From: Dehalococcoidia bacterium
Lineage (GTDB): Bacteria > Chloroflexota > Dehalococcoidia > UBA6926
Reading direction: 5' to 3'
Length of the DNA stretch: 64,000 bases
Assembly (NCBI GenBank): GCA_963666115.2
Contig: CAXXET010000004.1
Coordinates: 32,001 to 96,000, forward strand
Positions 3,825-33,700 of this stretch are shown here, piece by piece (the first letter of the stretch is position 1; every line of letters starts with the position of its first letter). The notes below the pieces were generated by a model. That model worked only from the letters and a program-made list of their open reading frames with translations, ran no database searches and was not told the DNA's origin. Position numbers and translations under genes: made by a program.

Positions 3825-3847
3825 GATGCGTTTGAGTTTAGCAGAGG

Positions 3848-5673: not shown

Positions 5674-5721
5674 CAGCGAACCGGCGGAGTATGATGGAAG
5701 GGCACTGCGGCGCGTAACCAT

Positions 5722-5793: not shown

Positions 5794-5811
5794 TTTCATC
5801 CGCCCAAGATC

Positions 5812-5943
5812 AACCTTGCAATCTGCCGAGGGTAAAGGTTGCAATTTGCCGCGCCATAACCTTGCAATCTGCCGAGGGTAAACCCTGCAATCTGCCGCAT
5901 CCTAACCTTGCAATCTGCCGAGGGTAAAGGTTACAATCTGCCG
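5812..5943 (+). repeat. Tandem array of three 46-bp units, each made of two 23-bp subunits with core TGCAATCTGCCG
   Basis: Units start at 5812, 5858 and 5904 (AACCTTGCAATCTGCCGAGGGTAAA...); six core copies in total. Confidence 0.92.
5908..5937 (+). promoter_or_regulatory. Putative sigma70 promoter inside the last repeat unit, probably leaderless
   Basis: TTGCAA (5908-5913), 18 bp, TACAAT (5932-5937), 6 nt, ATG (5944); no SD. Confidence 0.6.
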
Positions 5944-14989: not shown

Positions 14990-15004
14990 TTCTATAATGG
15001 TAAC

Positions 15005-15997: not shown

Positions 15998-17331
15998 TCA
16001 CCCCCGCCCTGCTGAGTTGGACCTGGCTCAGCCTGCTCCTTCTCGTCGCCGGGCTCTTCTTGGGCAACGTCATTCTCCTTGCCGCTGCCGTGTTCCTCTT
16101 TGTCGCCGTTCTCACGGCGGGCGGCGTCCGCCCTCCCGGTGACGTTGTCATCGAGCGCGGCCTCCCGCGCGTCATCTGCTGGGTCGGCGATTCCCTGGTC
16201 GTCCAACGCCGCCTGACCGCGAAGGGAGGGCTGGGAGCAATCCGCGTCGTTGACCCCCTGCCGCCAGAGGCGACCGTCATCGACGGCAACAATTTCCACG
16301 TCGTCTGGAAATGGCCGGGCGAGACAACGGTCGATCTCTCCTACACCATCGCCTTTGCAAAGCGCGGCGAATACGCGCTGCCCGAGACCGTCTGGGAGTC
16401 CCAGGCGCCCCTCGGAGCGGGACGCGGCGAAAGCGGCCGGGCAGGCCCCGAACTGGGCCTCCTCGTTGCCCCGCGAACGTCGGACATCAGCCGCCTCAAT
16501 TCCGTCCGCGCCCTCACGCGCAGCACGATGCTGCAAGACGACATCTCCCAAATACGGTCGTCCGGCGAGGAGTTCCGCGAACTCCGGCCATACCAGCCCG
16601 GCGACCCCATCAAGAGCATCAACTGGAAGGCGACGGCGCGCACTGGCGAGGCCGCCGACGTGCCGCTGGTGAACGAGTTGGAGCCCGAGGGGCGCAAGGC
16701 CGTGTGGATATTCCTGGACATGGCCTCCTACATGGACGTCGGCACCGCCGTCTCCAGTCCCGTTGAAAACACCATCGAGGCCGCCGGCACGCTGGCGCAG
16801 TTCTACGTCTCGCAGGGCTCCACGCTCGGCGCATACGCCTACAACTCCCTGGGCGGCGGGGAACTCCTCTCGCCGGACTCCGGCCAAAAGCAGTTTCGCA
16901 GGCTTACCCGCATGTTCGCCGGCCTCACCCCCGGCCCGCCCGAACAAGACCTGCTCCGCTCCGTTGAATGGTGCAAGTCCTTCCTCTTCAGGCTCCGCCC
17001 GCAGGTGTTCATCATCACCCGCCTCGATGCCCACTACCCCCGCCCCGGCGACGATACCGATCAGCTCGACCGGCTCACGACCGCCGTGACCCGCCTGACC
17101 GCGCTGCGCGCCCGCTCGCGCCGCGGGGGCCGCGTCCGGGTGATCCACGTTCATCCCCCTGCCGAACAGCAGGTTGGCGAGTCACCCGTGGAAACGGTGG
17201 ACATGGCGCGCTGGGAGACTCGCGCGACCATGACCGCGCTGCAACAGGCGGGCGCCGCCGTGATGGACTGGGACCCCTCCGGCGAGCGATTCATCACGAC
17301 GCTCGTGCGGCACATGGACAGGTACCAGTGA
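15994..17331 (+). CDS. DUF58 (VWA-like) protein
   Basis: EFRELRPYQPGDPIKSINWKATAR motif, KRGEY, N-terminal TMs; follows moxR with an ATGA overlap. Confidence 0.92.
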   Translation: MITPALLSWTWLSLLLLVAGLFLGNVILLAAAVFLFVAVLTAGGVRPPGDVVIERGLPRVICWVGDSLVVQRRLTAKGGLGAIRVVDPLPPEATVIDGNNFHVVWKWPGETTVDLSYTIAFAKRGEYALPETVWESQAPLGAGRGESGRAGPELGLLVAPRTSDISRLNSVRALTRSTMLQDDISQIRSSGEEFRELRPYQPGDPIKSINWKATARTGEAADVPLVNELEPEGRKAVWIFLDMASYMDVGTAVSSPVENTIEAAGTLAQFYVSQGSTLGAYAYNSLGGGELLSPDSGQKQFRRLTRMFAGLTPGPPEQDLLRSVEWCKSFLFRLRPQVFIITRLDAHYPRPGDDTDQLDRLTTAVTRLTALRARSRRGGRVRVIHVHPPAEQQVGESPVETVDMARWETRATMTALQQAGAAVMDWDPSGERFITTLVRHMDRYQ

Positions 17332-18080
17332 TATACATCCCGTCTTCCCTCACCGGGCGGCTGGCCTGCGCAGAGGTCGGCCTGGTGGTCCTCATCGCCC
17401 AGGTTGCCTTGTGGATGGCGACCGAATCCATCCGGTTTGCCGACCCCGCCAGGACGATGTGGCCGCCGTTCCTGGTCGAACTCTCGCTGTCCGTTCTGTC
17501 ACTGCGCGCTATGTTGATCATGGCGGCAATAGTCGGAATCTACTTCGCGCTTAGGCGCTCACGCCGAAACCGGCTCGCGTTCTGGGCATTCACCGCGTTC
17601 GCTGTGGGCGCACAGATACCCGACCTGTGGGCGCACAACCGGATCGACTGGCACCGCTTCTTCGACCGCGTGGCCTACTTCTCGGAGCCGCTGCCCCTAC
17701 TGGCCTCCGCAGCCCTGTTCCTGCTCACCCTTGCCGGCCTTGTCGCCCTGCACCGCATTACTCAACTGCGAAGCCTGGCCGACGACATGGACATGCGCGG
17801 CGTGGAGGCCGCGGAGCGCAACGCGATTATCACGAACGAGGCGATCAGCATTGCCGCAACGATCTTCGTGTCTCTTGGCCTAGCGACGCTTGTCGTCATC
17901 GTCGCCATGATCGTCGGACGCGCCGAGCTTGTCTCCGGCCTGGCGGGCTGGGCGGTCGTCATCATCGGAGCCGCCGCGACGCTCTCCCTAGCCACCTTCC
18001 TCCTCTTCCTCTACCGAGGCCTAAGCGGCGGGGAAACGGTATTCCCAGACGAGGACGACGCGGGAGACGCGGAGGCCTGA
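17328..18080 (+). CDS. Membrane protein of unknown function, last gene of the MoxR operon
   Basis: About 6 TMs; GTG start at 17328 overlaps the DUF58 stop (GTGA). The ORF track's longer N-terminus overlaps DUF58 and is rejected. Confidence 0.72.
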   Translation: MIYIPSSLTGRLACAEVGLVVLIAQVALWMATESIRFADPARTMWPPFLVELSLSVLSLRAMLIMAAIVGIYFALRRSRRNRLAFWAFTAFAVGAQIPDLWAHNRIDWHRFFDRVAYFSEPLPLLASAALFLLTLAGLVALHRITQLRSLADDMDMRGVEAAERNAIITNEAISIAATIFVSLGLATLVVIVAMIVGRAELVSGLAGWAVVIIGAAATLSLATFLLFLYRGLSGGETVFPDEDDAGDAEA

Positions 18081-18086
18081 TCCCCC

Positions 18087-18194
18087 CTACAGCGTTGTTC
18101 CCTCAACCACGTCCTCTACCCCGTTGCCTTTGCGCATTAGACGGCGGAGGATTGCCGCGAGAACCAGGATGATCGCGCCCACCACCGGCAGCCA
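18087..18194 (-). pseudogene. Orphan copy of the last 36 codons (TM anchor, basic tail and stop) of the cadherin/FN3 giant-protein genes
   Basis: Translates to WLPVVGAIILVLAAILRRLMRKGNGVEDVVEGTTL*, nearly identical to the C-termini of the CDSs ending at 22122 and 30745. Confidence 0.9.
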
Positions 18195-18254
18195 CCGGCG
18201 GTCCGCCTCGTCCTCCACCACTTGCGGATTGCCAGATAGCGTACAATGGCACAC

Positions 18255-21200
18255 ATGTCGGCGATGACTAACCCATCCCCCATCCTTGAGCGCGTCTACA
18301 CCGACCTTGACCTGGTCGGAGGGTTGCTGTTGGATGCAGCGGACTCACCCTCGGTTGATGACACGGATCGATGGCGGGAACTAGGCGACTGGCTCCTTCT
18401 AGCAGACCGGGTCCAAGCAGACAGGATATTTTTTCTGAAGGATGACCCCGTCCTGGTCTTTTCATCTCTCCCGTCGGACTCTGATGAGAACGATGTTTTC
18501 GAGTGCTATCGACGCACGTGGAGTCTCGCTAGGCCGCGTTGCCTGTTCCTAGCCATTGGCAATGAACTGCGAGTGTATTCTCTTGCTAATCCACCTGTTC
18601 CTATCGGAGACCGTGCATCTACTCCCGAACCGCTGGAAGTCATCACCCAGGCCACCGAAGTCTTGGAAAAGCTGTCTGGATTTCGCCGCGAGCGGATGGA
18701 GTCCGGGGCGGCTTTCGAAGATCCGGCATTGTCCGAGCAGTCAGGTCGCGCCGATCAACAGTTGCTTCGAGATGTACACGTGGCGACCGCTGCATTGGTC
18801 GACGCTGGTCTTGAGCCACGTGCTGCCCACTCGCTCATCGAACGAGCGATCTTGGTCAGATATCTAGAAGATCGTGAGATTCTTACAGACGAGTATTTTG
18901 ACGAAATCGCCAATCATCACCAGCAAATAATCGAACATTCTTCGCCCGTGGAGCAGATCCCGGATTTCGGAAAGCCCAGTCGATTCATTGGGTTTCTTGC
19001 CGATAAGAGCCTCACTTACGGACTGTTCGACCAACTCGCTAAGGATTTCAATGGCGACCTGTTCGTGACCAGCATTGAAGAAAAAGAGGCTGTTACCAGC
19101 AATCAACTCCAATTGCTAAGTGACCTCCTGGCAGGGAAAACGAGTGCGGTCCAACAACCGCTGTTTCTTTGGGCCTATGACTTCAGCGTTATTCCTACTG
19201 AGCTCATTTCCACTATGTATGAACTGTTCTACCGCGAAGAAGCGAGTCAAGAAAGTTCAAGCACGTACTATACGCCGGCAGCGCTAGTAGAGTTCGTATT
19301 GACTGACCTGCTCAATGAGGAGACACTCGACCGTGAACCCACCGTTTGTGACCCTGCTTGCGGGTCGGGAATTTTCCTGGTTGACGCATACCGCCGGATA
19401 GTCAGGCACGAAATGCGGCGCGAAGGGAAGCCCCTTTCCAGTGAACGACTAAGGGAGCTACTGCTGAGCCGTGTTTCAGGTTGCGACATCGATGCGGCGG
19501 CAATTCGTCTCGCGGCCTTCAGTCTTTACGTGGCTTTCTTGAGCTACCAGTCGCCTCAGGATATTCGCGAAGCTGGGCCGCTGCCCCGGCTGATATATGA
19601 CCGAAACCCGGATTCTGAGCTTGCCCCCCTGGTCGTAGGCGATGCCTTCGCTCCAAGGGAAGGGGAATATACCTCCACTGAGCAGGAGAACTCAGTTTAT
19701 GCGGAAAGGTTGCCCTGGCCAAACACCGGTTTCGATATAGTAGTCGGCAACCCGCCATGGACCGAGATTACTGAGGAAAATAGGACCCGGCCTGAGGAGT
19801 GGGCGCGACAGTTTGACCACCCAGTTGGAAACCGAAATCCCTCACAACTGTTCCTCTGGCGCTCCTTGGATCTTCTGAAGGATGGGGGCATAGCCGCTCT
19901 ACTGATCGGCGCAAAGGCGATGCTCAATACTAGAAAGACGGACCGCCAGTTTAGGGAGCAATGGCTGCAACAAGTGAGACTTGACCACGTGGTCAACTTC
20001 AGTCATGTCAGAAAGGATTTCTTTGCGAGCGGCGTTGCACCCTTCATGCTGGTCCGATTCCGTCGTCGTAAAGCGCTGTCCAATGACATGGTGGTCTACG
20101 AAACTGCTCGACGAGTAACTTCTGGAAGACGCGGCTCAGCCGCACTAGCGCGTCTTGACCGCCAAGTGGTGTCCCAGGCTTCCTTGGTATCTCGGCACTA
20201 TCTGTGGAAAACATACAGCGCGGGCTCGCTCCGGGATGATGCCTTAGTGGCGAGGCTAGAGGCCGAAGACCGCTTGAGTCGATATATCTCAGATAGCCCT
20301 CACGGCTTTGGATTTCAGCGACCACGTACAGGAGAACAGGGTCATGCTGCTCCACAAAGCATCAGTAGCCTACCCATTCTCTCAAAGTTCGATTCGTGGG
20401 GCCCACTAAGGAAGGAGTGGTTCGAATCCGCTCCCTCTCACGTCAAGTATCCTCCCAACGAGCGGCTTTTTGAGGGGCGACGGTTGCTCCTACGATGGGG
20501 CGTCTCACCCAGGTTCGGGCCACATGCGCGACTGGAAGCCGACCCTGTTGCCTTCCGGCACACAACCTATTCCATATCGTTGGATCACCTGTCTCTGTGG
20601 GAAGGCAAGGCCATCCTCGCAACGTTGCTGTCGTCGTTGGGGCGTTACTGGCTATATATGATCTCCGGCTCTTGGGGTACATGGCGAGACCAAGTCCGCA
20701 TAAGCGATGTGCTTGACCTCCCCATCAGACTTACACCGCCCACCAACGGCTTAATGGAACGGATAGAAGAGGCTGTCGACGCACTCTACTACATGACACC
20801 GCAGAGGAGGAGCAGTATTGCCTCCACAGTACCTCCGGAAATGAAGCAAATCGACGACGCCATAGCGGATATGTTCGAGCTTTCAGATGCTGAGCGCAGC
20901 CTCGTCGCGGACTTTTGGGCATCCTTAGAGCCGGAAGCGGACCTGCCAATGCCAGCCGTCGAAATGGTTTCCGGTACTGAGGCCGACCTGGATCCCAACA
21001 GCTTGGACGGGGCCTGGCCATACCTAAACGTTTTGGTGAGGACTTGGAATCGGAGATTGAGGGGCAGAGGAGAGTTCAGTTGGAGGGTATGGCGGGACGT
21101 TGATGCTGGCGTAATTGCTTTGGTCATGGAGACCGGCGACGTCGGGCAGGATTCTCGTCCCATTCCTACCCCGGAGGAAACGGAGAGTTGGTCCGCAGTG

Positions 21201-21392
21201 CTCCATCGCTTAGGGGTTCAATGGGACGTACCGCAGACACAATCAATCCTTCGATACGGTGTGGTTAGAGTCATAACTGATACTGCAATTGTAATAGTCA
21301 AGCGCGACGAGCGACATTTGTGGACGACAACGGCAGCTTGGCAAGACGCTGATGCCACAGCAGCACAAGTAATGGCGGCCAGGCGACCATGA
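18255..21392 (+). CDS. Large N6-adenine DNA methyltransferase (gamma class, Type IIG/Eco57I-like) with a putative target-recognition region
   Basis: YYTP, motif I DPACGSGIF, motif IV VGNPPW, ELISTMYE; visibly less GC-biased than its neighbours. Start could be 18246, 18255 or 18264. Confidence 0.88.
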   Translation: MSAMTNPSPILERVYTDLDLVGGLLLDAADSPSVDDTDRWRELGDWLLLADRVQADRIFFLKDDPVLVFSSLPSDSDENDVFECYRRTWSLARPRCLFLAIGNELRVYSLANPPVPIGDRASTPEPLEVITQATEVLEKLSGFRRERMESGAAFEDPALSEQSGRADQQLLRDVHVATAALVDAGLEPRAAHSLIERAILVRYLEDREILTDEYFDEIANHHQQIIEHSSPVEQIPDFGKPSRFIGFLADKSLTYGLFDQLAKDFNGDLFVTSIEEKEAVTSNQLQLLSDLLAGKTSAVQQPLFLWAYDFSVIPTELISTMYELFYREEASQESSSTYYTPAALVEFVLTDLLNEETLDREPTVCDPACGSGIFLVDAYRRIVRHEMRREGKPLSSERLRELLLSRVSGCDIDAAAIRLAAFSLYVAFLSYQSPQDIREAGPLPRLIYDRNPDSELAPLVVGDAFAPREGEYTSTEQENSVYAERLPWPNTGFDIVVGNPPWTEITEENRTRPEEWARQFDHPVGNRNPSQLFLWRSLDLLKDGGIAALLIGAKAMLNTRKTDRQFREQWLQQVRLDHVVNFSHVRKDFFASGVAPFMLVRFRRRKALSNDMVVYETARRVTSGRRGSAALARLDRQVVSQASLVSRHYLWKTYSAGSLRDDALVARLEAEDRLSRYISDSPHGFGFQRPRTGEQGHAAPQSISSLPILSKFDSWGPLRKEWFESAPSHVKYPPNERLFEGRRLLLRWGVSPRFGPHARLEADPVAFRHTTYSISLDHLSLWEGKAILATLLSSLGRYWLYMISGSWGTWRDQVRISDVLDLPIRLTPPTNGLMERIEEAVDALYYMTPQRRSSIASTVPPEMKQIDDAIADMFELSDAERSLVADFWASLEPEADLPMPAVEMVSGTEADLDPNSLDGAWPYLNVLVRTWNRRLRGRGEFSWRVWRDVDAGVIALVMETGDVGQDSRPIPTPEETESWSAVLHRLGVQWDVPQTQSILRYGVVRVITDTAIVIVKRDERHLWTTTAAWQDADATAAQVMAARRP

Positions 21393-22060
21393 ATCAGCGT
21401 CCACAGTTGTCATCTCTCGACCTATGGAGCGACCACGAACAACTGTGTAAGCAGCTGCTTCGCGATGCATTAGCGGAATTGGAAGACAGCCCCATCGACG
21501 CCGATGAGAATGACCTCAATCGCCTTCTGTATAGGGCCATAATCCGAGTGTCCCAGAGGGCATCTGAGAGTGGAGATCATGTTCCTGTCGTTGTCCCCGA
21601 AGGAAGAAACCCACCGGCCGCATCCGACAAGGAGCGTGCCGAACGTGAATTCAAGACCCCAGATTTCTATTGGGCCTATATCGACCCTCTCGCGAGTGAC
21701 CCCAATGACGCCTCCAAGCAGTTCGTGGTCGAGTGCAAGAGGCTTGCCAAACCGATCTCTCGATACGCCAGAGAATACGTTAAGTCTGGAATCGCCCGGT
21801 TCATCAACATCGGCCACGGATATGGGAAGGGGGTGAGGAGCGGTGCCATGGTCGGGTATCTTCAAGAGGTCTTTCTGGATGAAGCATTGATGGGCGTGAA
21901 TCGTCAAGCTGCCGAAGACGCTATTCCCGATTTGCTTGCCTTACGGAGAGACGGCGAAAGTAGCGCGGAACTTGTTCACCAGGTCACTCGGCAATTTACC
22001 GTCTCCCCCTTTCAATTGACTCACGTCTGGACTCGGATTGGTCCCGAGCCGGTTCCTTGA
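21389..22060 (+). CDS. Putative PD-(D/E)XK nuclease partner of the methyltransferase
   Basis: E..LN, TPDF...FVVECKRL, YVKSGIARF, GAMVGY; ATGA overlap with the MTase stop. Confidence 0.7.
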   Translation: MNQRPQLSSLDLWSDHEQLCKQLLRDALAELEDSPIDADENDLNRLLYRAIIRVSQRASESGDHVPVVVPEGRNPPAASDKERAEREFKTPDFYWAYIDPLASDPNDASKQFVVECKRLAKPISRYAREYVKSGIARFINIGHGYGKGVRSGAMVGYLQEVFLDEALMGVNRQAAEDAIPDLLALRRDGESSAELVHQVTRQFTVSPFQLTHVWTRIGPEPVP

Positions 22061-22121
22061 CTTCCCTATTGCCCAAAGTTGACACAGTTCCCAGCTTGGT
22101 CCGGCCGTGTCCCGGCTCCTC

Positions 22122-25100
22122 CTACCCGGTCGATGATTCGATAATGTCCTCTACCCCGTTGCCCTTGCGCATTAGACGGCGGAGGATTGCGGCCAAGACC
22201 AGGATGATTGCTCCCACGACCGGCAGCCAGTTGATGAGGGTGGAGACGCCGCCCTCGATGAGGCCAACTTCGGCCAGTTCCGGCGTTTCGTTCACCACGA
22301 TGGCAAACTCCGCCGTGACCGGATCGTTCACCTCGTCCGACGCCGTAATCGTCACGCGGTAGGTTCCGGGCGCGGCGTCATCGTACACCGTGCCGCTCAC
22401 CGCGCCGACGCCGTAGGTCAGCCACGCGGGCAGCCCCACCAGCCACACCGTCACCGTGTCCTCCGGGTTCGGATCGGTCACCGTGATGGCGAACGACTCG
22501 ATGGTCTGCCCCTGTAGGAACTCCTTGTCCGCAGGCGTGACGATCGTCGGAGGCGCGTTGACGGGCGGCTCCTCGACGACGTCGTCCTCATCCTCCTCAG
22601 TAGTCACGTCAGCCGCGCCGCTGCCCTCGCCCGTGTCCTCATCCTCCTGGTTCCAGTTGGACGTTCCGGCCGGCCCGCCCGATGACGACGCCGGGCGTGC
22701 CGCCGGCGGGGGCGTCGGCGACGCAGTTGGCGCAGCCGGGGATGTCGAGGAGCTTGGCGTTGGCGTCGCCGTGGTAGTGGGAGTTGGGGCAGCAGGCGTC
22801 GGCGTCGCGGGCGCGGGCGTCGGAACCGGAGTCGATGGCGCGGGCGCAGGTGTTGGAACAGGAGTCGACGGCGGCGCAGGCGTGGCTGTCGGTACGGGAG
22901 TAGCGGGCGGCGTGGGCGCGGGCGTGGCCGTCGCCGTGGGCCTCGGCGTGGGGTTTCGCGACGACACATTCCGCTTGGTGTACACCGTGACCACGTCCGA
23001 CCACTCGCCGTAGCCCTCGCCGTTGTCCGCCATCACTTCAACCTCATAGGCCGTGCCCGGCTTCAGCGGCGCGCTTGGGTTGCTGCTGGTGGGAGCCTCA
23101 TCCATCACCACCTCGGTGGCAGAGCCCGCCCAGGCGGTGACAAAGTCCGTCCCCTTCTCCCAGAACCGCACCCAGTACTCCTTCACCGGCGGCTTGCCGG
23201 TGGTGGCCGGCGCCGTCCACGTGACCGTGATAGTGCTGGTGGTGGCCGACTTGGCCTTGAGTCCCCCCGGCGCGTCCAGCGGCTCATCCACGTCCGTCAC
23301 GGTGATATTCACAAACGCCGAAGCATCGATCACCGTGTCCGCGTTGTCCCACTCATCCTTCAGATCGCTCACCTGCACCGTGACCGTGTAATTCGTCGTG
23401 CTCTCGTGGTTGAGCGACGTGTCATCGCCTACCGTGATCTGGCCCGTCGACGAGTCGATTTCGAACTTGTCCGCGTCCGTGCCGATCATGGTATACGTGA
23501 GCGTGTCGCCCTCCGTGTCCGTTGCGCTGACCGGCGCGCCGACGTTCGCCCCGGCGGCGGAGTTTTCCGCGATCTGCCGCGTCGCGCCGAAGAAGCCGAC
23601 GTCCGTGAACGCCGGCGGCGTGTTCAAATCTTCCGTCGACGCCGTCCCGCTGCCGGACCACGCCCCGTCCCCCTCGTCGTTCACCGCCCGCGCCTGCACG
23701 TCATACGAGGTTCCCGGTGAGAGGCCCGTCAGTGTCGTCGATGTGCCCGTTCCGGTGAAGCTGTGCGACGTCCAAGTGGAATCGCTGCTCTTCTTGTACT
23801 GCACGTCGTAGTCCGTGATCGCGGGCTTGCCCGTCACATCCGGCGCAGTCCAGTTCACGTCAAACTGCGTCTTGGGGTTGGCGGCGTTCCGGTCGACAGT
23901 TGGCGCGTCCGGCGCGGGCGGCGGCTCGGCCGCGTCCGTCACGCTGATCGTCACCGCGATGGTATCGTCGATCTCCGAATCCGGGGCTCCATAGGAATCC
24001 TTGCCGTCGCTGACCTGCACCGTGACCGTGTAGCTTGTCTTGCTCTCATAATCGAGCGTCGTGCCGGCGCCCACCTGTATCTGACCCGTCGATGCAACGA
24101 CGGTGAACTTGCCCGCGTCCGTTCCCGTCAGCGAATACGTCAGCGCGTCGTCCTCCGTGTCCGTGGCGCACACCACCTCGTCCACGTTCGCTCCCGCCGC
24201 GGAGTTCTCCGCGATCTCCCGCGTCACGCTGAGGCTGTTGTACTTGAACTGCGGGTTCACGTTCTTGTCCTGCGTCGTCGCCATGCCGCTGGTCGACCAC
24301 GCGCTGTCGCCCTCATCGTTCGTCGCCATGATCTGAACGTCATACGACGTTCCCTCGTCCAGCCCGGTGATCGTCGTGCTTGTGCCGGTTCCGGTGAAGG
24401 TGTGCGATGTCCACGTGGAATCGGAACTCTTCTTGTACCGCACGTCGTAGTCGCTGATCGCAGGCTTGCCTGTCATGTCCGGCGCAGCCCAGCTTACGTC
24501 CAGCTGCGTCTTTGGAGTCGTCGTGTTCTGGACGACCGTCGGCCCGTCCGGCGCGGCGGGCGGCTCCGCAACGTCCGTCACGCTGATCGTCACCGCGATG
24601 GTGTCGTCAACGGTCGTGTCATCGTTGTCGTCAGAATCCTTGCCGTCGCTTACACCGACGCTCACGCTGTAGGAACTCTTCGCCTCATAATCCAACGCCG
24701 CCTTGACCTTGATCTGGCCTGTGCTGGTGTTCAGGGAGAAGCTGGCCACGTCCACGCCTGTCAGGCTGTACGTCAGCGTGTTGTTCTCCGTGTCCGTGGC
24801 CGTCACCGCCGCGCCGATGGCGGTATTTGCCGCCGAGTTCTCCGCGATGCTCCGCGTCGTCGTGGCGCTTGGGAACGTCGCGTTGACGTTCGGGTCCTGC
24901 GTGGTCGCGGAGCCGCTGGTGGACCAACCGCTAGCGCCCTCATCGTTCTTGGCCTTCACCTGCACGTCGTAGGACGTGCCCTCGTCCAAGCCCGTCAGCC
25001 GCGTTGTCGTGGCCGTGCTGGCAAAGGTGTGGCTTGTCCACGTGTTATCGCTGCTCTTCTTGTATTGGACGTCATAGTCCGAGATGGCGGGCTTGCCCGA

Positions 25101-28100
25101 CATGTCCGGCGCGGTCCAGCTCACGTCCAGCTGCGTCTTGGGCGTGGCCGAGTACTGCCAGACGGAGGGCGCGCTCGGCGCGGCGGGCGGCTCATCCGCG
25201 TCCGTCACGTTGATGGTGACGCTGATCGTGTCGTCGATCGCCGTGTTGGCCGTGCCGTCCCCGGCCTTCTTGTCCGTGACGTTCACCGTCACGCTGTGCG
25301 ACGTCGCGGCCTCATAGTCCGGGATATTCCCCGTCTTGACCGTGATCTGCCCGGTGGTGGAGCCGATGGTGAACTTGCCCGCGTCCGTTCCCGTCAGGCT
25401 GTAGTAGAGCGTGTCGCTCTCCGGATCGGCCCCTGCGGTGACCACCGCGCCAACGTTCGTGCTCGCCGCCGAGTTTTCGGCGATGCTGCGTGTCGCCGTT
25501 GCCGCGCTGAACTCCGCCCCCTCGTTCACGTTTGTGACGTTGATAGTGACGGGGATCACGTAGCTTCCCGGCGCGTTCGGCGCAAGGTTCTCGCTTTGCG
25601 CCTGCGCCACCGCCGCAGTCACCGTGACCGTCACCCTGTAGCTTGTCTTCGTCTCATAATCCAGGCTCGTGCCGCTCTTGACCTTGATCTGGCCCGTGCC
25701 GCCGGTAATCGTGAACTTGCCCGCGTCCGTGCCGCCCAGCGCGTGCGAGAAGGTGTAATTATTCGGGTTCGAGGTAGCCGTCACCGGCGAGCCGATGTTC
25801 GTGTTCGCCGCCGAGTTCTCCGCCACGCTGCGGCTCATGCCGCCCGCCGTCGTGACCGCCGTGCCGCTCGCCGACCACGCGCTATCGCCCTCGTTGTTCG
25901 TAGCCTGCACCTGCACTTCATACGTCTTGCCCGCCGTCAGGCTGCCAATGCTCGTCGACGTGCCCGTTCCCGTGAACGTGTGGCTGCTCCACGTGGAAGC
26001 GCCAACCTGCCGGTACCGCACGTCGTAATCACTCAGGGCAGGCTTGCCGGTCATGCTCGGCAGGGTCCAGGAAACATCGATCTTCGTTGTTGGAGTCGTC
26101 GAATTCGTGCTCACCGTTGGCGCGGCAGGCGCGGCGGGAGGCTCATTCACGTCCGTCACGTTGATGGTCACCGCGATGGTGTCATCGATGACCGTGTTGG
26201 CCGTGCCGTCCGCAGCCTTCTTGTCCGTGACGTTCACGGTCACGCTGTACGAGGTCTTGGCCTCATAGTTGGGAATGTTGCCCGTCTTGACCGTGATCTG
26301 GCCGGTGGTGGCGCCGATGTTGAACTTGCTCGCATCCGTTCCCGTCAGGGAGTACGTGAGGGCGTCGCCCTCCGGGTCCGCCCCCGCAACGACAGCCGCG
26401 CCGATGCTGCTGCCCGCCGCCGAGTTTTCGGCGACGCTGCGCGTGGCCGTCGCGGCGCTGAACTGGGCCTTTTCATTCACGTTGGTCACGTTGATGGTGA
26501 CCGCGATGGTGTCGTCGATGGCCGTGTTGGCCGTGCCGTCGGCGGCCTTCTTGTCCGTGACGTTCACGGTGACGCTGTACGACGTCGTGGTCTCATAATC
26601 CAGCGACGTGCCGCTCGCCACGGTGATCTGCCCCGTGCTGGAGCCGATGCCGAACTTGCTCGCGTCCGTTCCCGTCAGCGTGTAGTAGACCGTGTCGCCC
26701 TCCGGATCGGCCCCGGCGGTGACGACCGCGCCAACCGTCGCGTTGGCCGCTGAGTTCTCCGCGATGCCCCGCGTGGCCGTGGCGGCGCTGAATTCCGGCC
26801 CCTCGTTCACGTTCGTCACGTTGATGGTGACCGCGATGGTGTCATCGATCACCGTGTCCGCCGTGCCGTCCGATGCCTTCTTGTCGCTCACGTTCAGCGT
26901 CACGCTGTAGCTAGTCTTCGTTTCATAGTCGAGAGACGTGCCGCTCGTCACGGTAATCTGGCCGGTGTTGGAGCCGACGGCGAATTTGCTGGCGTCCGTT
27001 CCTGTCAGCGTGTAGTAGAGCGTGTCTGTTGTTGGGTACGGATCGGTGGCCGTGACCGCCGTGCCCACGTTCGTTCCCGCCGCCGAGTTCTCCGCAACGC
27101 TCCGCGTCGCCGTGTCGTCGGAGAACGTGGGATCAAGGTTGTCAACGGTTGAGCCCTTGACGATGGCCGACCATTCGGGGCTGCCTTGGTTCACGTCGTC
27201 CTCAGCCTTCATGCGGAATTGGTACTCGGTGTTCCGATCCAGGCCCGAGATTTCCAGGCTCGTCACCGGCTGGTTGTTTGAGACGGCATCGATGTACTTG
27301 TATGGCGCAGTCGTCCAGTTCGTCTCACTCGCCTTCATGTAGATGATCCAGAACTTCGCGACGTCGCGGTAGTCCGGGTCGCGCGTCGCGTTCGACGAAA
27401 CGCTGTTATCGTTCGGTTCGTCCCAACTGATGATGAGCGTGTCGTAGGGCTGGGTTGTCTTCTGCGCCACGCTGACACCCGTCACCATGGCCGGCAGGTA
27501 TTCCTCGTCGGTCAGGTTGATGGTCACCGCGATGGTATCGTCGATAACTGTGTCCGCCGTGCCGTCCGCGGCCTTCTTGTCGCTCGCGTTCACGGTCACG
27601 CTCAGGCTGCTGTCTGTCTCATAGTCGAGTATCGCGCCGCTCGCCACCGTGATCTGCCCCGTTGTGGAGCCGATGTTGAACTTTGAGGCGTCCGTGCCCG
27701 TCAGCGTGTAGTACACCGTATCGCCGTCTTGATCGCTCGCTGTCACAACCGCGCCCACGTTCTGCCCCGACGCCAGGTTCTCCTTGATGGAGCGCGTGGC
27801 CGTCGCGCCACTGAACTCCGGCGCCTCGTTCACGTCCGTCACGTTGATGGTGACGGCGACGTTGTAGTCGCCCGGCGCGTTTGGATCGAGTGTGAAGCTC
27901 TGCGCGTTCGCCCCTGCCTGCGCCGCCGTCACCGTCACGACCACGCTGTAGCTGCTCTTGGTCTCATAGTCCAGGCTCGTGCCTGTTTTCACCGTAATCT
28001 GGCCGCTGGACGACGCGATGCTGAACTTGGAGGCGTCCGTGCCGCTTAGGCTGTGCGTCAACGTGTAGCCGTTGGTGTTCGCAGAGGTCGTCACCGCCGC

Positions 28101-30575
28101 GCCAACGTTTGTTCCCGCCGCCGAGTTCTCCGCGACCGACCGCGTCACCGCATTCGAGTTGGTAGAGCCCGACCCGGTGTCCGACCACCCGCTCGTTCCC
28201 TCCGCGCTCGTGGCGCGCACCTGCGCGTCGTAGAGCTTGCCGACGGTCAGGCCCGTGATTGTCGTCGTCGTGCCCGCGCCGGTGAAGGACGCGTCCGTCC
28301 AGTCCGTCGTGCCGGACAGCCGGTACTGCACGTCATAGTCGGTGATGTCCGGCCCCGTATTGGTCGGCGCTGTCCATGTAATATCCAGCTTGGTCGTCGG
28401 CGTTGTGGTGTTGGCCGCTACCGTGGGCGCGGACGGCGCGGACGGAACCTCCGTTGTGTCCGTCACGTTGATCGTGACCGCGATGGTGTCGTCGATGGCC
28501 GTGTTCGCCGTGCCGTTAGCGGCCTTCTTGTCGGTGACGTTCACCGTGACGCTGTAGGAGGTCTGGGCCTCATAGTTGGGGACGTTGCCCGTCTTGACGC
28601 TTATCTGGCCGGTGGTTGAGCTGATGGCCAACTTGCTCGCGTCCGTTCCCGTCAGCGAGTAGGTGAGCGTGTCTTCCTCCGGGTCAGCCCCGGCGGCCAC
28701 CGCCGCGCCGATGTTGGTTCCGGCCGCGGAGTTCTCCGCGATGGAGCGGGTGGCGGTGTCGTCGGCGAACACGGGGCCCTCGTTGATGTTCGTCACGTTG
28801 ATCGTGACCGGGATGATATAGCTGCCCGCCGCGTTGGGACTGAGGCCGCTGTTGCCCGTCCCCGTCGAGCTGCCCCCGGACGCCGCCATCGTCACGGTGA
28901 CACTGTACGATGACTTGCTTTCGAAATCCGGGATGTTGCCGGCCTTGACCTGGATCTGGCCGTTGGAGGAACCGATGGTGAACGTGCTCGCGTCAGTTCC
29001 GCCCAGGGAGTAGGCCAGCGTGTAGCTGTTGGGGTTGGAATCGGCGTCCACCGCCGCGCCGATGTTGGTATTCGCCGCCGAGTTCTCGGCGATGCTGCGG
29101 GTCTGCGTCGTGTATTGGGTGATGGCCGTGCCGGAGGACGACCAGGCGCCGGTGCCTTCGGTGTCGGTGCCCCGCACCTGCACCTCGTAGCTCTTGCCGG
29201 CCGTCAGGCCGCTAATCTCCGTGCTGGTTCCCGTCCCGCTGAAGCTGTGGTTCGTCCAACTGCCGGCCCCGGTCTGCCGGTACTGAACGTCGTAGTCCGA
29301 GACGCCATCGGGATGGGAGGGCGTCGCCGCCGTCCACGACACGTCCAGCTTGGTCGTCGGCGAGGTGGCGTCCCTGGACACCGTGGGCGCGGTCGCCGTC
29401 GGCCCAGTGAGGTTGTTGATGCTGATCCTTACCTTGCGGTGGGACTTGTAGGTGGTGCCGCTGTCCACCACGTCGTAATTGACCCTGCCGAGGTAGGTAG
29501 TCTCGGTCTCGTAGTCCAGGGTCGCGCCGGACTTCACCTCGATCAGGCCGGTGCTGCTGCTGATGGTGAATGCTTCGGTGGCGTCCCCGTAAGAGCCGGC
29601 GTCCGCTTGAAACGTCCAGTTGCTGGCGCCGGAGTTGTACACCCCCACCTTGCCCACGTCGGCGCCGGCGGCGGAATTCTCGTTGATTGACATGGATGAC
29701 CCGGAGGTGGTGCAGGTCATTTTGAACTTCCACGTGAAGTCCGCGTAGAGGCCGCCAGGATCCGTCGCTCTGGTCCTGATCGTCACCCACGTGTCGGCGG
29801 GATGGTTCGCGCGAATCCTGACGGGGGTGTCCTGTGTGATGGCCACCAGCCCGGGATGCGAACTAGTCGAAACGATGGTCAGCGTGTCGCCGTCCGGGTC
29901 TGAGAAATAGCTGTTCTCGCCGGTGGGGTACGACACCCCGTGGTTTTTGTAGCACTCGTTGTCTCCGTCATCTACCCGATGGTGGGTATCGTGGGTGCTG
30001 GCGATCACCTGGGGCGCCTGGTTGGACTGGCCGCTCGCGCCATCCTCCGCTTGCCCCTGCGCCTGTGCCTCCTGCGCCAGGGGAACCTTCAACTCCGGCT
30101 TGACCGGCTCTGCCGTCGCCGTCGGCTCAGGCGTGAACGGCCCTGCGGGCGAGGAGTTCGTCCACCCGCCCCACCCCGCGTCGTTCCCCGCGCGCGCGGC
30201 AACAATATAGGATTTCGCGTTATCGACGCCGCCGATGGTGATGGTCGAGGCATTGTGCTCATACGCGGCGAGGCTCCAGCTAACCGCCTCGTCCGAGCTG
30301 TACGTCACGTGATAGCGAGTCGCCCCCTCAACGGGAGTCCAACTGGCCGTCAGCGAGCCGTCCGCGCGCACAACCTTAACAGAAGAAACCGCCCCCGGAG
30401 GAGCGGTTTCGAGGCCGCCGCCGCTCGCCGACGCAGGCACGGGCAAGGCCAGCACGGGAAAAACAACGGCAAAAGCCAAAAACACAGAGAATGCCCGCTG
30501 CACCCATGTCATCCTCGGCGCGCCCCATGTCATTCTGAGCGCAGCGAAGAATCCTCCCGTCGGCATTCCGCCCAC
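22122..30575 (-). CDS. Giant surface protein A: signal peptide, ~13 cadherin-like and ~9 FN3 domains, Pro/Thr-rich linker, Ig-like domain, C-terminal TM anchor
   Basis: Repeats ENS..G.NVGA.V.A.D....L.Y.LTGTDA..F.I...TGQI.V......DYE..SYSVTV and DVNEPP; FN3 repeats SW.AP...DYDVQY...YDVQV.A.N.EG...WS. The true start may be ATG 30512, because the annotated N-terminus runs through a REP. Confidence 0.93.
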   Translation of the reverse strand: MGGMPTGGFFAALRMTWGAPRMTWVQRAFSVFLAFAVVFPVLALPVPASASGGGLETAPPGAVSSVKVVRADGSLTASWTPVEGATRYHVTYSSDEAVSWSLAAYEHNASTITIGGVDNAKSYIVAARAGNDAGWGGWTNSSPAGPFTPEPTATAEPVKPELKVPLAQEAQAQGQAEDGASGQSNQAPQVIASTHDTHHRVDDGDNECYKNHGVSYPTGENSYFSDPDGDTLTIVSTSSHPGLVAITQDTPVRIRANHPADTWVTIRTRATDPGGLYADFTWKFKMTCTTSGSSMSINENSAAGADVGKVGVYNSGASNWTFQADAGSYGDATEAFTISSSTGLIEVKSGATLDYETETTYLGRVNYDVVDSGTTYKSHRKVRISINNLTGPTATAPTVSRDATSPTTKLDVSWTAATPSHPDGVSDYDVQYRQTGAGSWTNHSFSGTGTSTEISGLTAGKSYEVQVRGTDTEGTGAWSSSGTAITQYTTQTRSIAENSAANTNIGAAVDADSNPNSYTLAYSLGGTDASTFTIGSSNGQIQVKAGNIPDFESKSSYSVTVTMAASGGSSTGTGNSGLSPNAAGSYIIPVTINVTNINEGPVFADDTATRSIAENSAAGTNIGAAVAAGADPEEDTLTYSLTGTDASKLAISSTTGQISVKTGNVPNYEAQTSYSVTVNVTDKKAANGTANTAIDDTIAVTINVTDTTEVPSAPSAPTVAANTTTPTTKLDITWTAPTNTGPDITDYDVQYRLSGTTDWTDASFTGAGTTTTITGLTVGKLYDAQVRATSAEGTSGWSDTGSGSTNSNAVTRSVAENSAAGTNVGAAVTTSANTNGYTLTHSLSGTDASKFSIASSSGQITVKTGTSLDYETKSSYSVVVTVTAAQAGANAQSFTLDPNAPGDYNVAVTINVTDVNEAPEFSGATATRSIKENLASGQNVGAVVTASDQDGDTVYYTLTGTDASKFNIGSTTGQITVASGAILDYETDSSLSVTVNASDKKAADGTADTVIDDTIAVTINLTDEEYLPAMVTGVSVAQKTTQPYDTLIISWDEPNDNSVSSNATRDPDYRDVAKFWIIYMKASETNWTTAPYKYIDAVSNNQPVTSLEISGLDRNTEYQFRMKAEDDVNQGSPEWSAIVKGSTVDNLDPTFSDDTATRSVAENSAAGTNVGTAVTATDPYPTTDTLYYTLTGTDASKFAVGSNTGQITVTSGTSLDYETKTSYSVTLNVSDKKASDGTADTVIDDTIAVTINVTNVNEGPEFSAATATRGIAENSAANATVGAVVTAGADPEGDTVYYTLTGTDASKFGIGSSTGQITVASGTSLDYETTTSYSVTVNVTDKKAADGTANTAIDDTIAVTINVTNVNEKAQFSAATATRSVAENSAAGSSIGAAVVAGADPEGDALTYSLTGTDASKFNIGATTGQITVKTGNIPNYEAKTSYSVTVNVTDKKAADGTANTVIDDTIAVTINVTDVNEPPAAPAAPTVSTNSTTPTTKIDVSWTLPSMTGKPALSDYDVRYRQVGASTWSSHTFTGTGTSTSIGSLTAGKTYEVQVQATNNEGDSAWSASGTAVTTAGGMSRSVAENSAANTNIGSPVTATSNPNNYTFSHALGGTDAGKFTITGGTGQIKVKSGTSLDYETKTSYRVTVTVTAAVAQAQSENLAPNAPGSYVIPVTINVTNVNEGAEFSAATATRSIAENSAASTNVGAVVTAGADPESDTLYYSLTGTDAGKFTIGSTTGQITVKTGNIPDYEAATSHSVTVNVTDKKAGDGTANTAIDDTISVTINVTDADEPPAAPSAPSVWQYSATPKTQLDVSWTAPDMSGKPAISDYDVQYKKSSDNTWTSHTFASTATTTRLTGLDEGTSYDVQVKAKNDEGASGWSTSGSATTQDPNVNATFPSATTTRSIAENSAANTAIGAAVTATDTENNTLTYSLTGVDVASFSLNTSTGQIKVKAALDYEAKSSYSVSVGVSDGKDSDDNDDTTVDDTIAVTISVTDVAEPPAAPDGPTVVQNTTTPKTQLDVSWAAPDMTGKPAISDYDVRYKKSSDSTWTSHTFTGTGTSTTITGLDEGTSYDVQIMATNDEGDSAWSTSGMATTQDKNVNPQFKYNSLSVTREIAENSAAGANVDEVVCATDTEDDALTYSLTGTDAGKFTVVASTGQIQVGAGTTLDYESKTSYTVTVQVSDGKDSYGAPDSEIDDTIAVTISVTDAAEPPPAPDAPTVDRNAANPKTQFDVNWTAPDVTGKPAITDYDVQYKKSSDSTWTSHSFTGTGTSTTLTGLSPGTSYDVQARAVNDEGDGAWSGSGTASTEDLNTPPAFTDVGFFGATRQIAENSAAGANVGAPVSATDTEGDTLTYTMIGTDADKFEIDSSTGQITVGDDTSLNHESTTNYTVTVQVSDLKDEWDNADTVIDASAFVNITVTDVDEPLDAPGGLKAKSATTSTITVTWTAPATTGKPPVKEYWVRFWEKGTDFVTAWAGSATEVVMDEAPTSSNPSAPLKPGTAYEVEVMADNGEGYGEWSDVVTVYTKRNVSSRNPTPRPTATATPAPTPPATPVPTATPAPPSTPVPTPAPAPSTPVPTPAPATPTPAAPTPTTTATPTPSSSTSPAAPTASPTPPPAARPASSSGGPAGTSNWNQEDEDTGEGSGAADVTTEEDEDDVVEEPPVNAPPTIVTPADKEFLQGQTIESFAITVTDPNPEDTVTVWLVGLPAWLTYGVGAVSGTVYDDAAPGTYRVTITASDEVNDPVTAEFAIVVNETPELAEVGLIEGGVSTLINWLPVVGAIILVLAAILRRLMRKGNGVEDIIESSTG

Positions 30576-30739
30576 AACGATCCCCTGGATTACTTGCGAT
30601 CATCAACACCTGATGAACTACAAATAATACATCCAGCATATCGTTGTCAAGCGCAACTATTGATCCTTCGCTGCGCTCAGGATGACAGGCTATGTCATTC
30701 TGAGCGCGCCCTATGTCATTCTGAGCGCAGCGAAGAATC
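30503..30739. repeat. Cluster of GTCATT-type REP-like elements (REPIN-like inverted pair plus truncated tandem copies)
   Basis: Full copies at 30528-30553 (+), 30662-30687 (-) and 30714-30739 (+); partial copies 21 bp before the 30528 and 30714 copies. Confidence 0.88.
30624..30650 (-). promoter_or_regulatory. Putative promoter of giant protein A
   Basis: Minus strand TTGACA (30650-30645)..TG-TATTAT (30629-30624). The 15-bp spacer is short. Shares TTGACAAC-ATATG with the promoter of paralogue B. Confidence 0.45.
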
Positions 30740-30744
30740 TTCCC

Positions 30745-33700
30745 TTATAGTGTCGTTCCCTCTATGGCCTCCTCCACCGCGTTGCCCTTCCGCATCAGCC
30801 GCCGCAGAATCGCCGCAAGAACCAGGATGATCGCGCCCACCACCGGCAGCCAGTTGATGAGCGTGGACACGCCGCCCTCGATGAGTCCAACCTCCGCCAG
30901 TTCCGGCGTCTCCACCACCACAACGGCAAACTCCGCCGCCACGGGGAAGTTCACCTCGTCCGACGCGGTTATCGAGACGCGGTACGTGCCCGTCGAGGCA
31001 TCCTCCTGCACCGTGCCGCTCACCATGCCGTCCTCATAGGCCAGCCACGCGGGCAGCCCCACCAGCGACACCGTCACCGTGTCCTCCGGGTTCGGATCGG
31101 TCACCGTAATCGCGAACGGCTCGATGGCCTCTCCCTGCAGGTACTCCTTGTCCCCCGGCGTGACGATGGTCGGCGGCGTATTGACCGGCGGCTCAATCTC
31201 CTCGTCCTGTTCGGCATCCTCTTCGGCTGGCGCGCTCGCTGCCGGCGCGGGTGTGGGCGTCGGCGTGGGCGGACGCGAAGCCGAGCTGGGCCCGGGCCCG
31301 CCGCCGGACACAATGGGTGGCGGCGTGGCTGCCGGCGTCGCCTGTGGCGCAGGTGTTGGCGTCGGGGTAGTCGGCACAGGCGTGCTTGTCGGAATCGGAG
31401 CAGCCGGCGCAGGCGTGGCTGCCGGAACCGGAGTCGACGTTGGCGGTGCAGGCGCAGGTGTCGGAACAGGCGTAGCGGGCGTTGGCGCGGGAGTGGCCGT
31501 CGACGTCGGGCTGGGCGTCGGCGTCGCGGCGGCCTTGGTATACAGCGTTGCCAGCGCCGACCACGCGCCGTAGCCCTCGCCGTTGTCCGCCATCACCTCC
31601 ACCTCATAGGCCGTGCCCGGCTTCAGGCGCGAGTTCGGGCTGATGTCGTCGTGAACCTGGTCCAGCAGCGCCTCGTTGGTGGTGATCGTCCAGGCGCTGA
31701 GGGTGTCGAGCCCCTTCTCCCAGAGCCGCACCCAGTACTCCTTGACCGGCGGCTTGCCGGTGGTGTCAGGGGCCGTCCAGGTGGCCGTGATGCTGTTCGT
31801 GGTGGCCGACTTGGTCGTGGGCGCCCCGGGAGCGCCCAGCGGCTCATTCACGTCCGTCACCGTGATCGTCACGGTGCTTGTCGCGTCGACGCTGTCATCC
31901 GGGTCGTCGTTGATGTCCTTGCCGTCGCTCACCTGGACTGTGACCTCGTAATCTGTCTTGCTCTCGTAATCGAGCGTCGTGTCGGCGCCAACCGTGATCT
32001 GGCCTGTCGACGAGTCGATTGCGAACTTGTCCTCGTCCGTTCCGGTCAGAGAATACGTGAGCGTGTTGTTCTCGGTATCGGTTGCCGTCACGGGCGCGCC
32101 CACGTTCGTGCCTGCCGCCGAGTTCTCCGCGATGGACCGATCAACAGTGGGCGCCCCAAACTGCGCGTTCTCGTTCTTGTCCTCCGTCCTGGCGGAGGCG
32201 CTGTCCGACCATGCGCTGCTCCCCTCGTCGTTCACCGCCTGCACCTGGACCGTATACCTGGTTCCCTCGTCCAGGCCGGTAAGCGTCGTGCTCGTGCCTG
32301 TTCCGCTAAAGGTGTGCGATGTCCACGTCAAGTCGATGCTCTTCTTGTACTGGACGTCATAATCCGTGAGCACGGGCTTGCCCGTTACGTCCGGCGCAGT
32401 CCAGCTCACATCCAGTTGGGTCTTCGGAGTCGTCGCGTTCTGCGCGACCGTTGGCGCGGCTGGCTTGGCGGGCGGCTCCGCAGCGTCCGTCACGTTGATC
32501 GTCACCGCGATGGTGTCGTCCACCACCGTGTCCGCGTTCCCGTCCGAGTCCTTCCCGTCGCTCACGCCGACAGTCACGCTGTACGACGTCTTGGCCTCAT
32601 AATCCAGCGCCGCCGAAACCGTGATCTGCCCCGTGCTTGTATCCAGCGAGAAGCTGGCTGCGTCGGTTCCCGTCAGGCTGTACGCCAGCGTGTCGCCCTC
32701 CGTGTCCGTTGCCGTCACGGGCGCGCCGATAGTTGCGCCTGCCACCGAGTTCTCCGCGATGCTGCGCGTCGCCGTGCTGTCTGCGAACGCGGGGTTCACG
32801 TTCGCGTCCTGCGTCGTTGCGGAGCCGCTGTCCGACCACTCGCTGTTCCCCTCGTCGTTCTTCGCCTTCACCTGCGCGTCGTATGACGTTCCCGCATCCA
32901 GGCCGGTGATCGTCGTGCTCGTGCCGGTCCCCGTGAAGCTGTGCGATGTCCACGAAGAATCGGTGCTCTTCTTGTACTGCACGTCGTAATCGCTGATTGC
33001 GGGCTTGCCCGTCATGTCCGGCGCAGTCCAACTCACGTCCAGCTTGGTCTTCGGAGTCGTCGTGTTCTGCGCCGCCGTCGGCGCGGCCGGCTTGGCGGGC
33101 GGCTCATTCACGTCCGTCACGTTGATTGTCACCGTGATGGTGTCGTCGATCTTGGTGTCCGCGTTGTCGTCGCTGTCCTTCCGGTCGCTTACCTCTACGG
33201 TGACGCTGTAGGAGGTCTTGGCCTCGTAGTTGGGCACGCTGCCCGATTTCACGGTTATCTGGCCGGTGTTCAGTCCGACGTTGAACGTGCCGCCGTCGGC
33301 GCCGGACAGGCTGTAGTACAGCGTGTTGCCCTCGGTATCGGAGGCGGTGATTGCCGTGCCCACGTTGCTGCCCGCCGTCGAGTTCTCGGCGATGCTGCGG
33401 GTTGCCGTATCGGCCGGGAACTGCGCGTGAACGTTCGCGTCCTGCGTATTCGTGGAGCCGCTGTCAGACCACCCGCTGTTCCCCTCGTCGTTCTTCGCCT
33501 TCACCTGCACGTCGTATGACGTTCCCTCGTCAAGCCCTGTCAACCGCGTGGTGGTCCCCGCCCCGGTGAAGCTGTGTGACGTCCATGAGTTGTCGCTCGT
33601 CTTCTTGTACTGCACGTCATAGTCACTGATCGCCGGTTTGCCCGTCATGTCCGGCGCAGTCCAGCTTACGTTCAGTTCCGTCTTCGGCGTGGCCGAGTGC

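Follow-up and report, generated by a model that had tools for sequence, protein, structure and literature searches.

The 3' ends of tRNA and protein genes are known targets of integrative elements, which enter through the action of an integrase and restore the gene; tandem paralogous surface-protein genes are known to undergo gene conversion. A further mode, the insertion of restriction-modification (RM) genes with a long target duplication, was reportedly described by Nobusato et al. in 2000. In the sections of Furuta, Abe and Kobayashi 2010 drawn on here, RM insertions with a long target duplication are recognized by an insert of less than 20 kb containing both restriction (R) and modification (M) genes, a repeat of more than 30 bp, the lack of any other mobile element, and a single copy at the empty site; the pattern is seen for all RM types and in several phyla, the repeats range from ~85% identity (233/263; 234/270, or 87%) to 100%, some of them overlap the 3' end of a gene (Figure 3 legend), and a cycle of insertion, amplification via the repeats, and release is proposed without experimental proof (PMC2853133). 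The 64,000-nucleotide (nt) stretch analysed here, referred to as the window (positions 32,001 to 96,000 of contig CAXXET010000004.1 from the Dehalococcoidia bacterium assembly GCA_963666115.2), contains a two-gene cassette, a DNA methyltransferase followed by a predicted restriction endonuclease, between two same-orientation copies of the 3' end of a giant adhesin gene (gene A). It is moderately probable that this locus arose through the insertion of a foreign, bare RM cassette at the 3' end of gene A with duplication of the gene end. A prior reading made from the letters alone (the sequence-only reading) had instead proposed that the anchor-coding tail of the adhesins acts as a recombination platform through which cargo cassettes and paralogues are gained, lost or swapped.

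The cassette and its flanking gene ends

The insert between the repeats is 3,927 nt in length (18195-22121) and has two open reading frames (ORFs) only. The first (18246-21392) is assigned as a gamma-class N6-adenine methyltransferase with a long C-terminal region, resembling the M subunit of type IIG systems; it matches Pfam N6_Mtase (1.5e-17) and Eco57I (4.5e-17), the PADLOC model REase_MTase_IIG (1.8e-46), the BsaXI RM chain (1.7e-07) and the MmeI_Mtase model, and has DPACGSG (residue 369) and NPPW (residue 502) as motifs. The second, whose start overlaps the methyltransferase stop by 4 nt, encodes a 223 amino acid (aa) protein that is predicted to be a BamHI-like PD-(D/E)xK endonuclease. 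No Pfam, NCBIfam or PADLOC model matched this protein, and Foldseek against the PDB returned no match at E 0.001 or better; the fold matches are from the VIA wide search, in which OkrAI (Z 8.3; root-mean-square deviation 4.0, 147 aligned), BamHI (8.1), BglII (7.5) and BstYI (6.5) are followed by many further PD-(D/E)xK nucleases. The predicted model has a pLDDT (predicted local distance difference test) of 96.6. The nuclease has 312 representative relatives (clusters), and across 80 aligned sequences residues E40, P91, E115 and K117 are invariant and D92 is nearly so. The pairing of a methyltransferase with a nuclease, as named in the sequence-only reading, is upheld by Pfam and PADLOC for the former and by motif, model and folds for the latter. 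The nuclease family is also found paired with a ~1000-aa methyltransferase in Chloroflexota, Actinomycetota, Planctomycetota and Leptospiraceae. The 23 window ORFs scanned against Pfam (two polyketide synthase ORFs, 52330-61852, lay outside the scan) gave no hit to an integrase or transposase family, in agreement with the statement of the sequence-only reading that the window has no integrase.

The cassette is foreign to its surroundings. The source genome, which is metagenome-assembled (2.07 Mb, 9 contigs), has a mean GC content of 0.634, and the flanks of the cassette ~0.65, versus 0.49-0.575 (about 0.55) from ~18.2 to ~22.1 kb. Among 21 congeners the sole strong match to the methyltransferase is a 32% relative at another locus (G007), also followed by a homologue of the small protein and located inside a low-GC island; the remaining congener matches extend over ~60-290 residues and cover the methyltransferase domain only. 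The G007 island (L035, G007:C1:536000-555999, at ~7000-20000) spans at least 13 kb with a GC content of 0.46-0.58 versus 0.66, and contains more large ORFs, of 1141 and 961 aa, beside the methyltransferase-nuclease pair. A scan of species genomes built on a 9-sequence alignment of the nuclease recovered 19 loci, with the methyltransferase just upstream in 16/19; a contig scan with the methyltransferase alone gave 93 pattern matches, none of which was confirmed. The two closest cassettes, from Chloroflexota and Dehalococcoidia metagenome-assembled genomes, are 77-78% identical at the aa level and share DNA with the window at 18229-22058 and 18236-22050 only; compared with each other, they likewise have DNA in common over the two ORFs only. 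Because the shared DNA is confined to the two ORFs, the unit has no conserved ends, inverted repeats or tail-like sequence, and the cassette is considered to be a horizontally acquired, bare two-gene unit.

Gene A and its paralogue, gene B, are arranged in tandem on the minus strand and encode cadherin and fibronectin type III (FN3) repeats by Pfam; their identity is 73.6% in the 3' 3.3 kb and rises to 83% in the 5' 4.5 kb. The product of gene A has a signal-peptide-like N-terminus and a C-terminal transmembrane anchor. Both C-termini consist of a plain hydrophobic helix, then RRLMRK, then about a dozen residues, and end in ...GVEDIIESSTG* (A) and ...AVEEAIEGTTL* (B); sorting-signal models (LPXTG, PEP-CTERM and similar) returned nothing relevant in the last 80 residues of A and B with NCBIfam at E up to 10. 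Two same-orientation copies of this tail flank the cassette and a third ends gene B, as the sequence-only reading had described. The orphan copy, on the minus strand, codes for the transmembrane helix, a basic stop-transfer stretch, 11 further codons and a stop (WLPVVGAIILVLAAILRRLMRKGNGVEDVVEGTTL*). It is convergent with the last gene of the neighbouring MoxR/DUF58 operon, with a stop-to-stop gap of 6 nt, and its homology to the tails ends abruptly at 18194/18195. An open frame of 85 residues runs through the orphan, without signs that it is a gene. By DNA search and tblastn, the 2.07-Mb genome contains three copies of the tail only, all at this locus; flanking repeats of this length are rare in the genome, as only 4 of 300 random 3,927-nt segments have direct repeats of at least 60 nt in their 4-kb flanks. 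With same-orientation copies of the anchor end on both sides of the cassette, gene A keeps its whole anchor, which bears out the earlier claim that anchoring is not disrupted.

The same architecture is found elsewhere in the cassette family. The 4-kb flanks of 24 family loci that have the whole module and flanks of at least 500 nt were compared, and direct flanking repeats were found at three of them (L047, L044 and L036). At L047, which rests on the unrelated genome G041 (flagged unpublished), a methyltransferase of 1104 aa (37% identity) and a nuclease of 240 aa (32%) lie between 103-nt repeats that are identical at 98/103 positions; to the left, the repeat forms the live 3' end of an Omp85/POTRA gene, stop included, and to the right (7774-7876) it is an orphan whose end is separated by 8 nt from the stop codon of a convergent gene. 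The insert at L047 (4,265 nt) contains the gene pair only, and the repeat has two copies in the genome. Since both orphans end 6-8 nt from the stop of a neighbour, the ancestral sites would have been convergent gene ends with almost no spacer. The closest relative of the L047 locus, in G050 (87% Omp85), matches up to the stop and is different downstream. L044 features a 75-nt exact repeat and a 61-nt repeat, with an adjoining large serine recombinase; at L036 the repeat, a copy of 51-64 nt from the 3' end of a LamG-domain gene, is placed around an 8.5-kb island.

The favoured explanation is that the two-gene cassette (methyltransferase and BamHI-like endonuclease), without a recombinase of its own, would have entered the extreme 3' end of gene A and left the last 108 nt of the adhesin frame on either side. 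The copy fused to the gene body would preserve the membrane anchor, and the other copy would be left as a dead orphan beside the DUF58 operon. At least one more homologous exchange between tail copies would have taken place at or after insertion, whether by Campbell-type entry of tail-carrying DNA, by acquisition of an allele from another strain, or by gene conversion from B; the direct repeats would also permit RecA-type loss of the cassette.

Tail mosaic, an apparent cassette-free allele and competing explanations

The orphan is a mosaic of A-type and B-type sequence. It matches gene A at 44/45 nt (18111-18155 vs 22146-22190) and gene B at 40/41 nt (18154-18194 vs 30812-30852), and its C-terminus, GVEDVVEGTTL, has the EGTTL* ending of B and not the ESSTG* of A; all of these figures and endings, first given in the sequence-only reading, were reproduced. 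The A and B tails themselves are identical at 78/108 positions, and exact matches of the orphan to the live tail of gene A reach 26 nt at most. Along the orphan, the 26 informative sites read AABBBBBBABAAAAAAAAAABBBBBB, which is 6 runs; a run count as low is seen in 0.0009 of 100,000 shuffles (0.09%), and the mosaic is non-random. The sites from 18109 to 18153 are A-type in 11/12 cases, and the arms are mostly B-type (6/6 on the 5' side, where the arm is identical to B at 38/39 positions, and 6/8 in the terminal arm, 18087-18102); there are 3 orphan-specific changes and 4 three-way sites. The first 24 codons (WLPVV...RKGN) encode the same protein sequence in all three tails, with 7 to 13 synonymous codon differences between pairs and 7-9 between the orphan and A and B. 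As the differences in these codons are only synonymous and private changes are few, the orphan lineage would have evolved inside a live gene and changed little since; the orphan is considered not to be a recent copy of the present A or B tail.

Live gene A differs from the orphan and B alike at 13 sites, which are concentrated in the two arms. Under plain duplication and later mutation, the 63 arm nt would have to have gathered 19 differences versus 1 in the 45-nt core, all of them silent for the anchor; a near-identical core with differing arms calls for one or more homologous exchanges between copies of the tail, and the 45-nt core is likely the site of crossover or gene conversion. The proposal that the tail serves as a homology site is therefore retained as far as exchange among tails is concerned (the 45-nt core with its reshuffled arms), and not as a platform for repeated exchange of cargo and paralogues, as there is one locus with one cargo.

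The orphan may alternatively be the remnant of a third tandem paralogue, Z (in the order Z-A-B), whose body was replaced or deleted by the cassette, the mosaic having arisen via gene conversion; this is considered unlikely, although several features of the orphan fit it. A third paralogue is plausible given the tandem, same-orientation arrangement of A and B, the synonymous-only divergence over 24 codons implies a lineage in a live gene, the 5' arm is near-identical to B, and the orphan stands where a gene end would be, 6 nt from the convergent stop. At the cassette junctions, however, no remains of a third gene were found; the right junction is without trace of a Z start, with 22030-22125 being genome-unique and unlike the A-B spacer. 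The duplicate at L047 also weighs against Z, as it is a 103-nt copy of the end of a single-copy Omp85 gene with no further copy present as a decayed paralogue.

Beyond the source genome, the tail is found only in one protein fragment and on contigs of one metagenome relative. The tail peptide has no match in the 21 congeners or in 300 other genomes of the class, and a degenerate tail pattern gave 0 records in JGI metagenomes, a set that may leave out near-identical records. Among 5.8 billion protein clusters there is one tail-bearing fragment, P0001 (160 aa), the body of which shares 84% identity with A versus 74% with B. Its terminus, GVQDVVEGTVV, has more in common with that of the orphan (GVEDVVEGTTL) than with that of A (GVEDIIESSTG). 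A search for tail-bearing proteins of 211-2000 aa returned none, which is weak evidence. A search by the C-terminus of the last operon protein gave no fragment that places the end of the DUF58 operon alongside P0001 (956-nt contig); the search did give P0153, a 95% relative, on a 980-nt contig.

Contigs from two public metagenome runs, X1 and X2, were aligned to 15000-23200 at 85% likeness. Over 18288-22123, X1 is without cover and X2 has small pieces, an absence not counted as evidence; X2 includes a 238-nt contig identical to the cassette. The X1 relative differs by ~2-4% in the DUF58 operon, with flanks ~97-98% identical (records 2, 4 and 5). Record 7 of X1 (391 nt, depth 3.82) passes directly from 18031 to 22121 and leaves out 4089 nt; from this joint, the adhesin tail would follow the operon without the cassette in the X1 relative, a candidate for the empty site that the sequence-only reading had looked to relatives for. 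In record 6 (182 nt) the operon end likewise runs into a tail. Record 8 (619 nt, depth 7.36) is 95% identical to A over 22146-22727 (582 nt), where A and B are ~74% identical, and its match to A stops exactly at the core boundary, 22146. Both X1 tail contigs have the orphan's codon CTC versus A's TTG (22194/22196); with the ending of P0001, this makes the orphan look like an older A-type terminus. The summed depth of the A-like tail (11.2 over two contigs) versus that of the DUF58 operon (~9) hints weakly at a single A-like gene in each genome, contig depth being a poor measure of copy number. For the third paralogue Z, these records cut in both directions: the X1 and P0001 genes could be Z orthologues, and yet the depths hint at one A-like gene and record 8 is far closer to A than A is to B.

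The assembly may also have joined the low-GC cassette of another organism through the repeated tail, given that this is a metagenome assembly, that the GC of the cassette is unlike that of the host and that the junctions are known from contigs and not from raw reads. Such an artefact is held to be very improbable: the orphan is distinct, with 20 differences from each other tail, and is continuous with unique DNA on both sides, the flanking copies share exact matches of just 26 nt at most, record 6 independently places a tail directly after the end of the DUF58 operon, and low-GC defence islands exist in congeneric complete genomes, G007 among them.

The platform proposal, in which a tail-carrying cassette circle would repeatedly enter adhesin tails by Campbell-type recombination in the 45-nt core, has as its corollary that the orphan and the live tail are reciprocal hybrids of resident and element-borne tails. 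A 44/45 core with diverged arms is the outcome of a single reciprocal crossover, but gene conversion accounts for the same mosaic, and the 26-nt longest exact match is short for efficient RecA recombination. As expected of a resident arm, the terminal arm of the orphan resembles the terminus of P0001, the match of record 8 to A breaks off precisely at 22146, and record 7 points to a cassette-free allele; an insertion-amplification-release cycle has moreover been proposed in the sections drawn on from Furuta et al. (PMC2853133). Set against this are the confinement of the genome's three tails to one locus with no second cargo, the lack of the tail in the 21 congeners, the 300 class genomes and the JGI records, and the related cassettes, which have no tail-like sequence and whose homology stops at the two ORFs. 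The sequence-only reading further pointed to alternative cargo and to a circle; none of the 11 congener loci compared has an A/B-like gene downstream of the DUF58 operon, and the cassette-holding run X2, which has small pieces only over the cassette, showed neither a circle nor an excision junction. The platform is therefore judged improbable, and the same standing is given to the idea that the anchor tail is a portable homology arm, such that an RM circle with one tail re-enters the tails of paralogues or other strains via the 45-nt core; if true, defence genes would hitch-hike on, and help to reshuffle, the ends of surface-protein genes without a recombinase of their own. In a sharper variant of this improbable reading, the methyltransferase and BamHI-like nuclease family may itself make ~100-nt duplications at convergent gene ends, with 108 nt here and 103 nt at the Omp85 gene as the two cases.

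Several points weigh against insertion of a bare RM cassette with gene-end duplication, which nonetheless remains the favoured explanation. The repeats are identical at 88/108 positions (81%), versus ~85-100% in the published cases as given in the sections drawn on from PMC2853133 and 95% in L047; simple duplication predicts identical copies, and the 13 arm-clustered differences of A force extra events. The cassette-free allele is one low-depth contig (3.82) whose joint may stem from other organisms or repeats, and the X1 relative may still hold a full third paralogue. Flanking repeats occur in only 3/24 family loci, with L044 and L036 being ambiguous, and the empty site of L047 is not demonstrable, as G050 differs downstream of the Omp85 gene. 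We infer the order of events and the mechanism of duplication, and the cassette-free allele may be either ancestral or an excision product.

Surroundings of the locus

The features of the locus are collected in Table 1. The methyltransferase is on the strand of the operon and the cassette begins 166 nt past the last operon stop; for this reason, read-through transcription of the methyltransferase is possible. A promoter scan of 17800-22500 returned 0 sites.

Table 1. Features at and around the cassette, with positions in the window
Feature	Position	Strand	Basis or remark
Last gene of the MoxR/DUF58 operon	17331..18080	+	ORF call; Pfam on MoxR (AAA_3) and DUF58 neighbours; orthologues in 16/21 congeners
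Orphan adhesin 3' end	18087..18194	-	88/108 to A, 88/108 to B; no gene body
Core common to orphan and gene A live tail (22146-22190)	18111..18155		44/45
Cassette left junction and short leader	18195..18245	+	Genome-unique (no other match E below 0.3)
N6-adenine DNA methyltransferase (assigned), 1048 aa	18246..21392	+	Pfam, PADLOC, motifs
Predicted PD-(D/E)xK restriction-endonuclease-fold protein, 223 aa	21389..22060	+	Conserved residues, model, fold matches
Right junction spacer, nuclease stop to gene A stop	22061..22121		Genome-unique; X1 contig joint resumes at 22121
Gene A live anchor-coding tail, second repeat copy	22122..22229	-	4035 nt from first copy
Gene A, 2817-aa cadherin/FN3 repeat surface protein	22122..30575	-	ORF call, Pfam
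Gene B, 2757-aa paralogue of A	30745..39018	-	Tail 30745-30852 is the third copy

The operon upstream of the cassette (13799-18080) comprises a MoxR AAA ATPase gene, a DUF58 gene and two membrane-protein genes without family assignment, all on one strand; a 2212-aa transglutaminase/HEAT/Ig-like protein (7191-13829) is encoded directly 5' of the MoxR AAA ATPase on the same strand. The end of the operon has orthologues in 16/21 congeners. In G019 and G010, the orthologue of the sulfate permease gene (window 50614-52263) is reached 2-5 kb after the operon, and the window from 18.1 to 50.6 kb is therefore regarded as a variable region; at the others of the 11 loci compared, the genes after the operon map to another contig of the source genome. 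One congener (L026, G014:C1:1449500-1469499, at 3726-20000) has an open frame of more than 5425 aa right after the DUF58 operon on the plus strand, with no BLAST relation to A or B.

The stretch from the DUF58 operon to the sulfate permease gene (18100-50600) is species-specific throughout; along with the cassette, A and B, it contains a third giant gene, encoding a 2651-aa FN3 protein on the plus strand, a methyltransferase, and a PIN/AF2212-like toxin-antitoxin pair (48089-48931). A 26-nt palindromic element resembling repetitive extragenic palindromes (REP-like) has 88 copies in the genome at up to 2 mismatches, with copies at 30528-30553, 30662-30687, 30714-30739, 39833-39858, 50612-50637 and 3848-3873; several are in the A-B spacer and one is at the right edge of the variable region. 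In translation, this element gives 'FFAALRMTWG'-type peptides at the annotated starts of gene A and the ORF at 39173-40030; these N-terminal peptides are probably spurious.

Comparison with described systems

The locus is most readily set beside RM inserts with long target duplication, as these are described in the sections drawn on from Furuta et al. (PMC2853133). As in those cases, the insert has R and M homologues with no other mobility gene, is ~4 kb in length (<20 kb) with a GC content unlike that of the host, and is bounded by a direct repeat of 108 nt (>30 bp) that is not dispersed. An insert-free relative may be represented by one metagenome contig (391 nt, depth 3.82); none of the 21 congeneric species genomes has an adhesin at the locus. 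The present repeats differ from those described in these sections in being 81% identical overall and 98% in the core, with reshuffled arms, and in that the repeat is wholly coding and constitutes a complete membrane-anchor tail.

The integrative elements of gene 3' ends show a similar duplication of the gene end, a replacement end on the side of the element, and a core with differing arms; unlike those elements, the cassette and the scanned window ORFs have no recombinase and the shared unit is two RM genes. The patchwork of the three tails and the synonymous-only divergence of the anchor are as in gene conversion between paralogues, but conversion alone leaves unexplained the placement of a foreign cassette exactly between two copies. 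Like the type IIG/IIB enzymes (MmeI, BpuSI, BsaXI), the methyltransferase matches Eco57I, MmeI_Mtase, N6_Mtase and the BsaXI RM chain; unlike those enzymes, the nuclease is a separate 223-aa protein from a family without a model.

The comparison thus returns a known mode of insertion for such cassettes, and establishes neither a new recombination platform nor a new class of mobile element. The locus provides an example of a bare defence cassette entering a densely packed, small genome (Chloroflexota-like) without destroying a gene, as the adhesin stays anchored with its membrane-anchor end present twice. Swapped arms around a 45-nt core and an apparently cassette-free relative make this a testable case of repeat-mediated loss and gain of defence genes, and the Kobayashi-type insertion pattern is extended to a family with a nuclease that lacks a model in Pfam, NCBIfam and PADLOC.

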